NCBI GenBank assembly: GCA_022711115.1 | Contig: JAKLFP010000002.1 | Location: forward strand, 79,674 to 143,673 | Reading direction: 5' to 3' | Source: Candidatus Omnitrophota bacterium | GTDB lineage: Bacteria; Omnitrophota; Omnitrophia; Omnitrophales; Aquincolibacteriaceae | DNA length: 64,000 nt | In this document: piece by piece, positions 29,601 to 38,600 of the stretch | Layout of the letters: every line of letters begins with the position of its first letter | How positions within the stretch are numbered: the stretch's first letter is position 1 | Position numbers: made by a program

Positions 29601-32600
29601 TTGTAACGTGTTGAACCCATGAAAATCGTTTTTTGTTGAGTATCTGAGGTATAAATGGTGGAGTCCCCCAAAAAACTCACCGAGCCATCTGCATTTTGCC
29701 GGATTTGATAGGCAGGTTCCCGGACCGGAAGCAGATTCTTTTTTTGACGGGTGTCATATTTTGCATGCGCTTTGTTATAAGTATTGATACCGGTACCCGT
29801 AACGGGTTTTTTGCGAATAACATCAATGGCACGATTCCAAAGCACTAAGCGTTCTGAAATCGACTGCTCTTTTGCATGGGCATCCAGATGAAGGATCATA
29901 GACCGAGGTGTAAAAGACAGCAGGACAAGGAATAGACCCAGTCCCAAGGCAAGCATTCTGAACCAACGTTTGTAAATAAAAAGCAAAAAAATACTCAGCA
30001 GAAGTGCAAGCATAGCTCCGCGAGTGCGCGTCAAATAGAGCAAGACAAATCCCACGATCGCAAGCGCTAAGCAATAAAAGGATTTTTTTCGAAGAACTAG
30101 ATTCTTGAACTGGCTGAAGAAGCACATTCCAAAAATCGGAATGACCGTAATCAAATAACAGCCCATGATTCCAAAATCACCAAAGGGACCGACAAGCCGT
30201 AAACCCGCGCCTGAGACCTGGGCCGGAAAGAAACGCAAAAAATCTTTACCAAAAATATACTGGATGGTTGAATCGATCGCCACCAGCACAAAGGTGCCCG
30301 CAAACACCAGCTCAAAATTTTTTTTGGTTTTTTCCTCTGCAAAAAATTCTGAGACCATAATAAAAGCCAAGAGGGGCTTAGCTATCTTGAAGAGTCCGCG
30401 GAAACTTTCCTTAGGATACTCGGACATCACATACGATACCCCCACAAATAGAAAAAACAGCGCCAAAGGGCCCCAGAAGACCCAGTCGATCTTTGTTGAA
30501 AAGAAACGTCTTTCTTTTAGATGGAGCAATCCCCAGAATACAAGCGTCGTCACGAACGCGATTTCCATGATAGCGATAGAAAAGGTGGTGCTTGTCCACA
30601 AAATGAACAGAGAAACAATAGCCCATTTTCGAAAATCAATACCAGAAAGTTTTGCGATCAAATGTTTCATAGTTTTATGAGTTAAAATAGCGCCAGTATT
30701 TCACAAGGGTATAATAAGCCGATAAGATAGCATATTGCAATCCGGTGACGCCATCTAAAATTCCCAAACGCCAGAAATAAAGGTAAAAGAATTTTGCGAT
30801 GGGGCGCCAGAGCACATGAAAAAACGTTGGACGCACTCCTTTCTCACGCATCGTGATAAGTTCGAGCGGGACATATTCCCGAACTTTCTGCCGATAATGG
30901 TCATAATCCCTAGTGCTGTAATGCAGCATCGGGTTTTGCAATCTTCGGCATGGCAATGCGGTCGTGATGGTTTCGTGAACAGGTTGCGTCCAGCAGACAT
31001 CCCGTTTGGGGAAAAGCCGTATCGGGGCATCATGGCGGGCATCACTAAAACGCAATCGCTTCCCAAAAAAGTAGGTATGGCGCGGGATCGCATAGACACA
31101 GGCCGGAATGGTTTTCGTTTCTTGAGAAATCACGCGCCGGATTTCTTCTTCCAACTCAAGAGTGATGCGTTCATCAGCATCCAAAAAAAGGACCCAGTCC
31201 CCCTTTGCCTGTTGCATGGCGAAGTTTCGCTGAGACGCAAAATCAGTAAAAGGATGCTCGAGAATAGTCGCCCCATATTTCTGAGCCAGTGCCACGGTGG
31301 CATCCGTACTTCCGGAATCCACGACAAGAAGCTCATCGGCCCAAGAAAGCGATGCCAGACAGTGTTCGATGTTTCGCTCTTCGTTTCGTGTCAAAACAAT
31401 CGCGGAAAGCATCAGGATTTCCTTTTGTGCCATACAGCTTCCCAAAAACCCAATAACAGATGCGACCTTCCCTTTAGAAGTGCCCACAATAACCGCCACG
31501 GCAAAAACAAAAGGTGTTTGATCAAGCATGATTTTTCGGAAAAATTTTTCCAGACAAATAAAAAAGTATTTCGGGAAGCAATGGTTTCCCGGCGCAAAGT
31601 CGAAAAGGTTTTGTTGAAGCTTGCCTGTCCCATATGAAAAACCTTACTGCGAGGTTCGTAATAAAGATGATATCCGGCGCGTTGAGCCCTCAAACAAAGG
31701 TCCGCGTCTTCATAAATTCCGGGAAGGTACCGCCGATCATAGCCTCCGAGCATGTTAAACTTCTTTGTTGAAAAAGCGCCAAAGCCGGAGGCAAAAGTTT
31801 TGCCGGAAATCATGGCGTGGGCTTCATATCCCGGATACCGCGCGCTGATCTTGGGCATCCCGAAGCGCATGCAAAATCTTGTGCCCACAGCTTCAATGCC
31901 TTTGCCGTCGAAAGTATGGACTCGCGGAGCAACCAGAAAGGTTTCAGAATCTTCTTCAAATTTCTTAATAAGCAAATCGATAAAATATCTATCGACACGG
32001 ATGTCATTATTTAACAGGATCGCAATCGGCTCCGTCATGGTTTTCAAGTAAGCGTTATAAGAACAAAGAACAAGGTTCTGAGATGCTTTGACAAAGTCAA
32101 TTTCTGGAAAATGGGTTCGAACGTAGGCTTCGCTTCGGTCCTGGCTCAAATTATCCAAAACTGTAATGGCGGTGGGTGTCGTTGCTGAACGCGCAGCCTC
32201 GACAAGACTCGGCAGACATTGGGAAAGCATTTCTTCCCCGTTATAGTTGAGGATCACAATGCGGGTTTTCATCATATGCCAGGTTCAGAGAGGCCAAAAG
32301 CGCCACTTTAAAATCGACCAAAGCATTCGTATCCCGTCTGTCCATTTGATCTTTTTGCCTTCCGAATACAACCTAGGCCGGTATTGAATCGGCACTTCAG
32401 CGATCTTATAACCGAGGCGGATGCTTTTGCAGACTAATTCATTATCGAATTCAAAACCGCTCGCTTGGACCTTCACCTTATCGAACAGAGAGCGAGTAAA
32501 GGCTTTGTAGCACCCTTCATAATCTGTAACACTTTGCCCATAAAAAAGATTGGTAAGCCAAATAATGATCTTATTACCGATGTAGTGCGATACGAACGGA

Positions 32601-35600: not shown

Positions 35601-38600
35601 CAGTCACATGTAATAAAGGAACCTTCCAAACAAGCCCCATGACCTCCTTCCGAGTGGGATAACACAATGCCGAGCGGTTTCATATAGTTCCCGAATCCGA
35701 TGAACCGGTGGCATTTATAAATAAAATCGGTATATCCCAGAACAATGACCAGGGCAGCCAGGATCCAAATGGCCAGATAGCACTTCAGAAGTTTTATTCG
35801 CGAATCCTTATTAGCAAGTCTTGAAAATAATCCGGCGATGACCAGCACTGCCAGATTGCCAAAGAGTGTAACCGCAGCAAAAGAAGCACCGTATTTCTTC
35901 TTGAGCTTCCACGAATAGATCAAACACAGGAAAGCTCCGGCAAGCACCGCTCCCCTAAAAATGAGGCGACGGTTGCGCGAGTTTTTGATGAGTTCAAAAT
36001 CCCGCGCATAAAAATAAAACGCAAAAACACAAAAAGGCCCGAAAAGCACCATCGCCTGTTTCTCCCCGATGGCATGCGCAATCAAAAAAAGAGAAATCCC
36101 TACGATCCATTTTTCAGACTGCGAAGAAATCGGAGGTACCGAGACGCTTTTGGGCTGAGAGAAATAAAAGATCAAGAATAAAGTAGAAATAACAGGCAAA
36201 AGAATCAAACTGCTGATTTTCGACATAAACGCAGCACCGCACGCCAAACCCAGAAGAATCAACTTCCGCTCTGAAGGAGCGTCAAAAAACCGCTTCAGTG
36301 CATAAATCGAAAGAAAATAAAAGACCGTAAGTCCCATGTCCGTTGTAAAAAGGGTTCCATGGGCAAGGATGTTGGGTGAAAAACAAAAGAGCGTTAATGA
36401 CAGAAGCGCGGCCCACTGGCCGAATAATTCTCCGGCAAAAAAGAAAAGAGCAAGACCCAGCAAAACCGTCAGCCCGATCATGGGGAGGCGTTGAAGAAAA
36501 AGGATCTGCTGAGGATTATTCCCCATTTGATACAAGAAACGCGCTCCATTGCGTGAAAGATCCAAACGGTCAGTGTTGGGAACATAAAGAGGGTCATGGA
36601 TGGGAAAATCCGGTTGAATCGCGAGAAGCGGTAATGCGGCAAGTTGAAGGATGAGCGGCGGATGTTCACCCAAAAATTCGTAATTATTATAACGAACGAT
36701 GGGATATCCCCCGCTGCTAAAAAACGTCTCGTCCGTTGTCTGGCCGACCGACCAAGCGGAATACAGACTTTGCGCTGTCAGCGCCAGCAACAATACAGCG
36801 ACACAAATACCGACTCTAGATATTTTGAGCATCGCTTACTCGCTCAGAAAAATGAGCCCCCAATCCTGGAACATCCCTAGGCACTGCTGAAAATTTGAAA
36901 ATCTTAAGAATGGCCGGATGTTTTTTCTTTTTCATATAAATCAGCTTTTCAAGCAAGCTTGAATGATTGATACCATCGACAGCGCCGAGAAGTTTTACTT
37001 CTGGCATTTTTGAAAAATCGGGGTTATGAAAGGTAGCATAATACCGATAACCCTGCTGTGCTTGTTCCCTAAAATCTTCCGGGCCGTCCTTGCCTTCCGG
37101 GACTTTATTCCACATTCCAAACCCAAGATCGACATAATAAGTGTAATCGCTTATTTTCTTATCATTTGCTTGTTCGCGAGGAAGAGAACAATAGAACTTT
37201 CCAACGGTAAGATTGTCGCTGACCTTAACTTGCTGCACATCTTGGAGAATCAGCCGCGAAGATTCTAAGAGATAATTCATTTTTTTCCCGATCATGATCC
37301 GGAGTGAACTAACATTTTGGACATTTTCCCAAATATTAAAACCTAAGGCAAGGATCAGAAAAAAGCCAAGCATCCAGGCAGGCCATCGTTTAAAACTTTT
37401 AAGCGCACAATAGAAAAGTCTGGAAATTAATACAAGGATCGGCGCCATCGTACCACTAAAATAACGGGGATCCGGCTGGAACATACCCAAAAACGGAAGT
37501 TCCACGATCAACCAAAGGGCGCAGATCCGAACCACATCATTCGCAAAAAAAGATTCTCTCTCCCTGTCTCTTGCAATCCACTTTCGCCAAAGAAAAACAA
37601 GTGACATGATCACAACAGACCAAAGCATAAAAAAACTCAGAGTCCTTGCGATGGAAACCGGAAATACATGATCCCATGAAAAAAACGCGGATCGAAGCTC
37701 ATTATCATAACCACACTCATAATTCAGAAAAAGCAGTCTGGAAATCGTACTCCATTTAAAGCCCAACCCCGGCATAGACCCCGCTGAAAGATGAGTGATC
37801 GGGACAATTTGAAAAGCCACAATGCCCATCGCAATATTCAACGCAAGGTACCGCAAAGGGGCGCTCTTCCATGATCGAAAGTGAGCTAACGAAAAAAGGA
37901 AAACCAGCAACGGTAAAACCAGTGTTAACTCTTTGGCTTTGATCCCAAACCAACCGGTTAAAAACATCCCCAAGAGAAGACTGCCAAACTGGATTCTAGA
38001 CCCTTGGGAACTCATATTTTTCTGAATAGCCAATAAAAAAAAGATCCCCACGAACAAAAAAAAGTAAGCGATCGTGGCCGAATCCGCGACCCAAAGGGCA
38101 TGGCTGTAGTGCGCCGGAACGAGAACGAAACACAAGGTGCCGATCACCGCAAAAATCCATGGGACTGCTTGCGTCAACAAAACAAAGAGAATGGTTACCG
38201 CTCCAGCAAAAAAAAGCCCTTTCGTAAAAAAATACATCGCAAAGAAATTCGGGCCAAAGCACTGCTGAACCATTTTAAGAATGATGGGAAGCACGATCCG
38301 CTTGTAACGCACCTCATCGTCCCGATTGGTTTGCCCCACCCAGTTCGAACTTTGGGACCATGGTGTCAAAAAGCTGTTTGAAAAATCACGCCAGGAAACA
38401 TCGCGCGCCATGATGACCTTATCCCAATCATCGAGATCGCTTGCGGGCATTCCTTGAAATAAAATCACCGTCCATGCCAAAACAACGACAAACACGATAC
38501 TGGCGGCAAAAACAATAGAGCGAGCACTCATGCCAACGAAGATGGCTCTGGGGAGAGTTGACAGAAATAAATGAAATGATAGGAAAAGCGCCTGGGGATC

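Follow-up and report, generated by a model that had tools for sequence, protein, structure and literature searches.

What does a glycan locus do with one soluble glycosyltransferase and three large membrane proteins encoded side by side? The question is raised by a 64,000-nucleotide (nt) stretch of DNA, here called the window, from contig JAKLFP010000002.1 of a Candidatus Omnitrophota bacterium (GenBank assembly GCA_022711115.1, positions 79,674 to 143,673 of the forward strand). Omnitrophota are uncultured, often ultra-small bacteria. On the minus strand of the window, at positions 32285-38531, four tightly packed genes encode a glycosyltransferase family 2 protein (GT2_a), a DUF2079 protein, a PMT_2 protein and a polytopic protein of an orphan family. 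The family matches, fold predictions, linkage and gene context described below suggest that these genes probably form a module for extracytoplasmic glycosylation within a lipopolysaccharide (LPS)/O-antigen-type cluster, in which a lipid-phosphate sugar made by GT2_a would be used by three GT-C glycosyltransferases that act outside the cytoplasm.

The four genes and their products

The four open reading frames (ORFs) had been proposed from an inspection of the DNA alone (the sequence-only reading), and were borne out in position, all on the minus strand, including a size of about 571 amino acids (aa) for the last, which is identical to a 571-aa database protein. They cannot be ascribed to chance, because they are long, have strong family matches and have dozens of homologues at 35 to 65% identity. 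The GT2 and DUF2079 genes are separated by 125 nt and the DUF2079 and PMT_2 genes by 64 nt, while the PMT_2 and orphan genes overlap by 17 nt. At the orphan gene the longest ORF spans 36816-38702 (628 aa), but the real gene is 36816-38531 (571 aa), since the database protein with 100% identity has 571 aa and homologues align from the same Met; in the sequence ATGA, its start codon shares nucleotides with the stop codon that ends the methyltransferase gene upstream. A hydropathy scan found no transmembrane segment in the GT2 protein and many in each of the three large proteins. Between 29000 and 46000, promoter-like sites occurred at the level of shuffled controls, and 34 terminator-like sites were counted versus 24.2 (standard deviation, 4.8) in the controls, with none in either intergenic gap; the scan gives no information on operon boundaries.

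GT2_a (32285-33025, minus strand; 246 aa) carries the Glycos_transf_2 domain (Pfam PF00535; E value, 1.9e-35), with the DxD motif of the GT-A catalytic domain present as DAD at residues 99-101. It resembles DPM1 and PpgS in its short architecture, which has no C-terminal transmembrane helices, and its Trp/Lys-rich C-terminal stretch (KKIKWTDGIRMLWSILKWRFWPL) looks amphipathic by eye. The best NCBIfam matches were to AglJ (2.1e-36), PpgS (7.9e-22, aligned over 216 of 226 model positions), ArnC (7.2e-19) and a haloarchaeal dolichyl-phosphate (Dol-P)-hexose transferase (1.8e-17). Among PDB sequences the best match was Pyrococcus furiosus DPMS (5mlz; 4.1e-20, residues 13-242, spanning the entire catalytic domain), and further matches were found to three ArnC structures at about 1e-15 (ArnC, 2.5e-15) and to GtrB sll0501. 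GT2_a is predicted to belong to the DPM1/GtrB/ArnC/AglJ/PpgS-like subgroup of polyprenyl-phosphate sugar synthases, in agreement with its earlier description as a soluble DPM1/GtrB-like GT2: the best matches are polyprenyl- or dolichyl-phosphate sugar synthases, and no transmembrane segment is present. GT2_b and a plus-strand GT2 (47880-48725), both discussed below, share this match pattern, with lipid-phosphate sugar synthases best, whereas the NCBIfam models best matched by the GT2 genes at 53883, 31412, 30675 and 21208 were of the TuaG/EpsE/MftF/SunS type and not lipid-phosphate synthases.

The adjacent gene (33151-34839, minus strand) encodes a 562-aa protein that, as the sequence-only reading had guessed, belongs to DUF2079 (PF09852; 3.4e-50), matching positions 1-457 of the 459 in the model with 171.9 bits against a cut-off of 28.2. 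Its layout comprises two extra N-terminal transmembrane helices, then a conserved periplasmic loop with D126 (FDMAIF) and, at the C terminus, a small alpha/beta domain. Across an alignment of 31 sequences, D126, Q132, H157, P160, H229, K264 and E265 were invariant, and D126 follows directly on the equivalent of GT-C transmembrane helix 1 (TM1). An AlphaFold (AF2) model was obtained with a predicted local distance difference test score (pLDDT) of 93.5 and a predicted template modeling score (pTM) of 0.92. Foldseek searches of the PDB with this model returned STT3 (7e-6), ArnT (5f15; TM-score, 0.52), DPY19, PglB, ALG9, Pmt4, AftA and PimE. Nearly all matches at a probability of ≥0.87 were GT-C proteins, the one exception being a GPI-transamidase chain (8imx_U), and transporters were interleaved only from rank 23 on, at probabilities of ≤0.12. 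In the model, then, the DUF2079 protein has a GT-C fold with a conserved acidic residue after the TM1 equivalent. This structure-based evidence is new here; DUF2079 is presumably listed by Pfam in its GT-C clan, and a literature search returned no paper on DUF2079 and, for PF09852, only unrelated work.

The third gene (34904-36832, minus strand) encodes a 642-aa protein of the PMT_2 family (PF13231; 3.8e-13; 50.4 bits versus a cut-off of 26.1) with about 12 hydrophobic segments and a C-terminal domain of about 125 aa. The DE...Y....HPPL signature that had been noticed in the sequence is present in the first loop after TM1 as T-D34-E35-TFF (codons of the D34-E35 stretch at 36719-36736) and E-H-P-P-L (residues 56-60; codons at 36653-36667), and both parts are kept in seven orthologues from related loci. 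Membership of PMT_2 and a DE/HPPL motif typically mark enzymes that use lipid-phosphate monosaccharides. With this protein, phmmer did not detect ArnT in the PDB even at E < 1, and NCBIfam gave no ArnT assignment.

An orphan GT-C family and its conserved neighbors

The fourth protein (36816-38531, minus strand; 571 aa) had no Pfam or NCBIfam match even at E < 5. A word-index search identified 38 homologues, none with a Pfam domain, and those with a source name were mostly from Omnitrophota. In an alignment of 26 sequences, P29, D32 and D34 were invariant and D35 was at least 90% conserved within the motif QGxPxxDxDDWD after TM1; the codons for D32-L-D34-D35-W-D37 (38421-38438, minus strand) define the candidate catalytic acidic loop (EL1). 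Also invariant were K200-E201, an NYxCGYDxE loop and an FQPDPRYFSG loop, and a C-terminal alpha/beta domain was present. A positive-inside analysis (K+R versus D+E over the alignment) gave a net positive charge in every predicted cytoplasmic loop, with the three conserved loops and the C-terminal domain on the opposite, extracytoplasmic side. With the AF2 model (pLDDT, 86.1; pTM, 0.88), the top 27 Foldseek matches in the PDB were all GT-C proteins (AglB, ArnT, DPY19, ALG9, AftA, STT3, Pmt4, PglB and Emb), at probabilities of 0.94 to 1.00 and TM-scores of 0.29 to 0.47, followed by transporters at probabilities of ≤0.15 and TM-scores of about 0.1. On this model, the orphan is probably a glycosyltransferase with the GT-C fold (GT-C_A class).

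A profile hidden Markov model of the orphan family, searched against 1.84 billion cluster representatives, identified 60 relatives at E ≤ 1e-30, 124 at ≤1e-10 and 926 at ≤1e-3. Among 60 distant relatives that were scanned, three carried PMT_2, one PTPS_related and four TPR repeats, and no membrane-protein family other than PMT_2 and PTPS_related appeared among the 25 listed. The orphan therefore appears, at the level of profiles, to represent an unmodeled family at the fringe of PMT-like GT-C proteins. In species-representative genomes the family was present at nine loci, seven of them labeled Omnitrophota or Omnitrophica, one labeled "uncultured bacterium" and one labeled "uncultured Actinomycetota" (L013; contig CAZGMX010000024.1). 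The last label could reflect mis-binning or horizontal transfer. At one locus, L003, the family has an additional and very distant paralogue of 581 aa (356-2101; 38.6 bits), which lacks a Pfam match and lies 8 kb from the main homologue, beside a Wzy_C gene.

Pairwise BLASTP detected no significant similarity among the five large membrane proteins of the window, that is, the three described above and the two described below. Comparison of the orphan, DUF2079 and PMT_2-orthologue profiles by hhalign gave probabilities of 2.7 to 12% (2.7 to 4.5% for the orphan versus the other two), and in phmmer and hmmsearch runs against PDB sequences no match was obtained with the PMT_2 protein, with DUF2079, with the orphan family or with the 715-aa orphan encoded at 45808-47955. 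The orphan, DUF2079 and PMT_2 proteins fall into distinct families, whose GT-C character only structure reveals. The GT-C nature that had been suggested for these proteins thus finds support in the folds of the DUF2079 and orphan models, and none was assigned to a transporter family by any profile search. A transporter reading was rejected, as both fold searches gave transporters only at noise level (probability, ≤0.15; TM-score, about 0.1).

Linkage was counted in 11 distinct loci around orphan homologues with 34 to 58% identity. A DUF2079 gene lay within 10 kb of the orphan homologue in 8 of the 11, and an orthologue of the PMT_2 protein (>460 bits) lay within the same distance in 7, usually adjacent. 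The order of the genes varies among the loci, which speaks for a functional linkage over one that is simply inherited. A GT2 resembling lipid-phosphate sugar synthases was found in each of the three loci checked, namely, a full-length PgfS/ArnC-like protein of 333 aa in L003, an AglJ/PpgS-like protein of 250 aa in L004 and an ArnC-like protein of 256 aa in L005. In L004, six GT-C genes stand in a row at 3602-14050 (DUF2079, PMT_2, GT87, PMT_2, orphan-family member and DUF2079) and directly precede the 250-aa GT2, the most extreme form of the arrangement seen.

Proposed function and competing explanations

Nearly the whole window is one minus-strand gene run, as mapped from ORFs of at least 150 aa. 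Family searches assigned positions 1-18382 to housekeeping genes (PlsX, RecG, TIM, PGK, GAPDH, Fmt, Def, PriA and UDG), and from 18388 to at least 63952 the genes make up a single glycan-biosynthesis cluster of more than 45 kb. Its contents include GT4 genes, seven GT2 genes, a GDP-mannose 4,6-dehydratase, methyltransferases, a carbamoyltransferase and NeuB, PseG-like and CMP-transferase genes for a nonulosonic acid. A Bac_transf initiating phosphoglycosyl transferase (22014-23408, minus strand; 1.1e-68) is, at the level of its family match, evidence for a pathway in which the glycan is linked to undecaprenyl diphosphate (Und-PP), and a GT9 heptosyltransferase-like protein (25611-26876, minus strand; Pfam GT9, 4.7e-25; NCBIfam heptosyltransferase III and II, about 1e-29 to 1e-30) ties the cluster, by sequence, to the LPS core. 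A Wzy_C-domain protein of the O-antigen ligase or polymerase type (WaaL-like) is encoded at 29243-30670 (minus strand; 1.9e-21). The sole flippase candidate in the window is of the Wzx (MOP) type (56751-58232, minus strand; Polysacc_synt_3 and Polysacc_synt). For the target of glycosylation, the sequence-only reading had listed lipid A/core, O-antigen side branches and proteins. The Bac_transf, GT9, Wzy_C and Wzx genes favor an LPS/O-antigen-type glycan over proteins, which narrows the list, though not with certainty.

Three-component periplasmic glycosylation systems are a published framework (PMC11127046; PMC8035078), into which the module can be placed as follows. At the cytoplasmic face of the inner membrane, GT2_a would use a nucleotide sugar to load polyprenyl (undecaprenyl) phosphate with a monosaccharide. 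The resulting lipid-phosphate sugar would be flipped to the periplasmic face by a flippase encoded outside the window, and the three proteins, with the GT-C folds and acidic first periplasmic loops described above, would each transfer sugar from a putative lipid-linked donor. They would act on a periplasmic glycan, most likely a Wzx-exported Und-PP-linked repeat unit or polymer, or the LPS core, and transfer could take place before or after the step catalyzed by the Wzy_C-type ligase or polymerase. That all three enzymes share the donor made by the adjacent GT2_a is something we infer. By analogy with known systems, one synthase beside three GT-C proteins suggests that the same sugar may be added at different positions or in sequence.

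The closest parallels are the Gtr-type systems, GtrA/GtrB/GtrC of Shigella and Salmonella and ORF15/ORF14/ORF12 (GT136) of C. youngae (PMC11127046), which likewise have a GT2-type synthase beside a GT-C enzyme with an acidic extracytoplasmic loop after TM1, within a Wzx/Wzy-type O-antigen-like cluster. They differ in that one GT-C, rather than three of unrelated sequence families, accompanies the synthase, in the C-terminal transmembrane helices of GtrB that GT2_a lacks and in the presence of a flippase, the window lacking genes for GtrA, an SMR protein or a second MATE flippase; nor are the GT-C proteins here related in sequence to GtrC or GT136 as far as tested. A second parallel is the pair ArnC and ArnT, which make undecaprenyl-phosphate-L-Ara4FN and transfer its sugar to lipid A (GT83). 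ArnC is among the best sequence matches of GT2_a, ArnT (5f15) superposes best on both modeled GT-C proteins, and the PMT_2 family covers ArnT-like enzymes. Unlike that system, the window has no genes for the 4-amino-4-deoxy-L-arabinose (Ara4N) pathway and no ArnE/F, GT2_a lacks the transmembrane helices of ArnC, and no ArnT match was found at the sequence level.

In mycobacteria, PpgS (Rv3631), partnered by the GT-C protein Rv3779, is a short GT2 (about 230 to 250 aa) comparable to GT2_a, which has no transmembrane segment, and several GT-C enzymes (PimE, Mpt, Aft and Emb) use polyprenyl-phosphate mannose or arabinose on periplasmic glycans; the GT87 gene in the L004 run of six adds to the resemblance. 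GT2_a, however, reaches only 78 bits against the PpgS equivalog cut-off of 370, and the present cluster is from Omnitrophota, has GT9 heptosyltransferase and WaaL-like genes and draws its GT-C proteins from DUF2079, PMT_2 and the orphan family. In the Gram-positive systems CsbB/GtcA/YfhO and PgfS/PgfM (PMC8035078; PMC5836110), a GT2 lipid-phosphate sugar synthase and GT-C proteins modify envelope polymers outside the membrane, and the trio in L003 comes with a full-length GT2 that resembles PgfS, but no YfhO or GtcA homologue was detected here and the type of envelope differs. Among eukaryotes, the Dol-P-Glc synthase ALG5 feeds three lumenal GT-C enzymes (ALG6, ALG8 and ALG10), and ALG9 is among the structural matches obtained here; since sequence kinship ends at the level of the GT2 and GT-C superfamilies, this comparison, like the sequential action that it would imply, is no more than an analogy. 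A speculative extension, which we consider possible but doubtful, is that DUF2079, PMT_2 and the DxDD-loop family form a conserved Omnitrophota periplasmic assembly line whose members act one after another, with a single lipid-phosphate sugar as donor, and so build an oligosaccharide branch or chain. If this were true, lipomannan- or ALG-like logic would operate in a bacterium for which the gene cluster suggests LPS, and a new CAZy GT family would have to be created for the orphan.

Several observations weigh against lipid-phosphate sugars made by GT2_a as the common donor. GT2_a falls far below every NCBIfam equivalog cut-off (AglJ, 125.8 bits versus 325; PpgS, 77.8 versus 370; ArnC, 67.9 versus 529), so that the subgroup is backed and the exact sugar and lipid-phosphate acceptor are not. 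The window contains no gene for a lipid-phosphate sugar flippase of the GtrA, SMR or MATE type and only the single MOP/Wzx gene; its unassigned gaps of >100 nt held only the SxtJ, DUF5989, ACP and plus-strand GT2 genes, and the called genes of six related loci had no GtrA or SMR Pfam match. A close GT2_a orthologue accompanies the trio only in L004, the synthase-like GT2 being of another subtype elsewhere. The structural matches have modest TM-scores (0.4 to 0.52) at 10 to 14% sequence identity, and they span enzymes that use phosphate-linked donors (ArnT, PMT and ALG9) and enzymes that use diphosphate-linked donors (STT3, PglB and AglB). Much of this would fit an arrangement in which at least one GT-C uses Und-PP-oligosaccharide donors, in an en bloc transfer like that of a ligase, polymerase or oligosaccharyltransferase (OST), and GT2_a is an ordinary cytoplasmic glycosyltransferase acting on the Und-PP-linked repeat unit: STT3, AglB and PglB stand alongside ArnT among the best Foldseek matches of both models, and the low equivalog scores, the loose co-conservation of GT2_a with the trio and the lack of a flippase gene point the same way. 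We consider this unlikely. A WWD (WWDYG-type) string is absent from all three proteins, their C-terminal domains of only about 125 to 140 aa are not of the large OST type, and the role of ligase or polymerase is already covered by the Wzy_C-type protein. Moreover, the DE/HPPL motif of the PMT_2 protein is typical of lipid-phosphate monosaccharide users, each of the trio loci checked has its own synthase-like GT2, and GT2_a, GT2_b and the plus-strand GT2 best match lipid-phosphate sugar synthases, unlike the other GT2 genes.

Two other alternatives concern the acceptor. Glycosylation of periplasmic or surface proteins, similar to the O-glycosylation by PMT and TMTC enzymes, would be in keeping with the PMT_2 membership of one protein, with Pmt4, DPY19 and OSTs among the structural matches, with the TPR domains that a few distant orphan relatives share with TMTC proteins and with the PgfS-like GT2 of the L003 trio locus, PgfS being part of a streptococcal protein glycosylation system. 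It is nonetheless improbable in our view, given that TPR and MIR domains are absent from all three proteins, that no obvious target protein gene is nearby and that the genes lie, here and in related loci, amid GT4/GT2, Wzy_C, GT9 heptosyltransferase, Bac_transf and Wzx genes. An ArnT-like modification of lipid A or core seems very improbable. In that reading GT2_a would be the equivalent of ArnC, and one or more of the GT-C proteins, the PMT_2 protein at least, would place a sugar or amino sugar on the phosphates of lipid A. No ArnA/ArnB/ArnD-type genes for Ara4N synthesis flank the module, no ArnE/F flippase is encoded in the window, and the PMT_2 protein has neither a phmmer match to ArnT nor an NCBIfam ArnT assignment. 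What speaks for it are the ArnC matches of GT2_a in both NCBIfam and the PDB, the nearby GT9 heptosyltransferase and WaaL-like genes and the superposition of ArnT (TM-score, 0.45 to 0.52), which is best on the two modeled proteins, DUF2079 and the orphan; the PMT_2 protein is not one of these. Extracytoplasmic transfer of a lipid-phosphate sugar to an LPS/O-antigen-type glycan is the explanation that we prefer.

Proposed further GT2/GT-C pairs and the surrounding cluster

The sequence-only reading had proposed two more GT2/GT-C pairs in the window. At 51264-53860 the proposal held as made: GT2_b (51264-52037, minus strand; 257 aa), a predicted polyprenyl-phosphate sugar synthase with 40% identity to GT2_a over its full length, overlaps the gene for a second PMT_2-family GT-C protein (52001-53860, minus strand; 619 aa; PMT_2, 8.6e-9; NCBIfam LIC_10190 family, 5.5e-11; Agl23, 4.2e-5), in which the PMT_2 domain begins after about three extra transmembrane helices. 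At 45808-48725 the genes proved to be a divergent pair. The plus-strand GT2 (47880-48725; Pfam GT2, 2e-13; NCBIfam AglJ, 6e-16; Dol-P-hexose transferase, 8.5e-15), which alone among the genes found in the glycan cluster (18388-63952) lies on the plus strand, is likely to start at 47973 (M32), giving about 250 aa, and faces away from a polytopic orphan (45808-47955, minus strand) with a longest ORF of 715 aa and a likely start, from the alignment of homologues, at 47862 (M32; about 684 aa). For the latter, the NCBI annotation gives 604 aa and homologues have 666 to 670 aa. The 75-nt overlap of the pair is an artefact of the longest ORFs, and the likely starts leave a shared promoter region of about 110 nt.

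The polytopic orphan at 45808-47955 had no Pfam match even at E < 5 and only four homologues, with a conserved GDxAYDDHIW...HHxVPP loop. Its hhalign probability was 28% against the orphan GT-C family and 88.5% (E value, 2.7e-6) against distant relatives of that family, with its acidic loop aligned to the DD loop of EL1. A divergent 246- to 247-aa GT2 resembling AglJ and Dol-P-hexose transferase is kept beside its homologues in loci L015 and L016, and one homologue with only 39% identity, in a different neighborhood, still keeps the divergent GT2. From the profile-profile match and this context, it is a probable GT-C protein, and the two pairs would be separate units of the same kind as the main module. 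Of the five GT-C candidates counted earlier, this is the one that has no Pfam match and is carried by the profile-profile match and context. Three lipid-linked donor systems had also been proposed; three GT2 proteins do best match lipid-phosphate synthases, and the lipid-phosphate monosaccharides that they would supply are inferred.

Other genes of the cluster were recorded as observations in their own right. At its border with the housekeeping genes (UDG and PriA), an MGDG-synthase/GT28-like glycosyltransferase (18388-19503, minus strand) might serve the synthesis of a glycolipid anchor or acceptor. The carbamoyltransferase (27429-29309, minus strand) is followed by genes for two small membrane proteins, of the SxtJ family (27009-27425) and DUF5989 (26774-26950). 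The same trio stands beside SxtI in saxitoxin clusters; within a glycan cluster, it implies a carbamoylated sugar. Five S-adenosylmethionine-dependent methyltransferase genes, three of them consecutive at 48741-51211 (minus strand) and the others at 38528-39241 and 61546-62145, suggest heavily O- or N-methylated sugars. Genes of a nonulosonic-acid pathway of the pseudaminic/legionaminic type occupy 58255-63952 (minus strand) and encode NeuB, a WbqC-GNAT fusion (746 aa), a methyltransferase, a PseG-like hydrolase (TIGR03590; 7.4e-28) and a CMP-sugar cytidylyltransferase; a Capsule_synth-like protein of 609 aa (54935-56764) adjoins them. No PADLOC matches were obtained, and a defense-system reading was rejected.

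A Dlt-like four-gene acylation module was identified at 41418-45827 (minus strand). It encodes an adenylating enzyme resembling acetate-CoA ligase (NF003313; 685 bits, just under the cut-off of 729), a 78-aa PP-binding carrier protein (43965-44201; below the size limit of the ORF listing), a DltB-like MBOAT protein (TIGR04091; 8.5e-50) and an AlgX-type SGNH protein, and the same order is repeated in L015 at 10024-14481. These features suggest carrier-protein-dependent O-acylation, possibly acetylation, of a periplasmic glycan, and may bear on the question of the acyl donor for AlgI/PatA-type MBOAT proteins.

In an Omnitrophota genomics preprint, LPS and capsule glycosyltransferases are mentioned only as hypervariable cargo. 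The type of system proposed here, a GT2 synthase with GT-C enzymes, is well established, and the PMT_2 and DUF2079 families are already catalogued, so that a known theme is extended and nothing is overturned. New here are a GT-C family that has no Pfam or NCBIfam model and for which candidate catalytic residues can be named, the conserved Omnitrophota trio of orphan, DUF2079 and PMT_2 proteins, and the density of five GT-C-type enzymes and three lipid-sugar synthases within 22 kb. DUF2079 and the orphan family offer concrete targets for heterologous reconstitution and CAZy classification. For the organism, the locus predicts an LPS/O-antigen-type glycan that would be heavily remodeled outside the cytoplasm by at least five GT-C enzymes and three lipid-phosphate sugar synthases.

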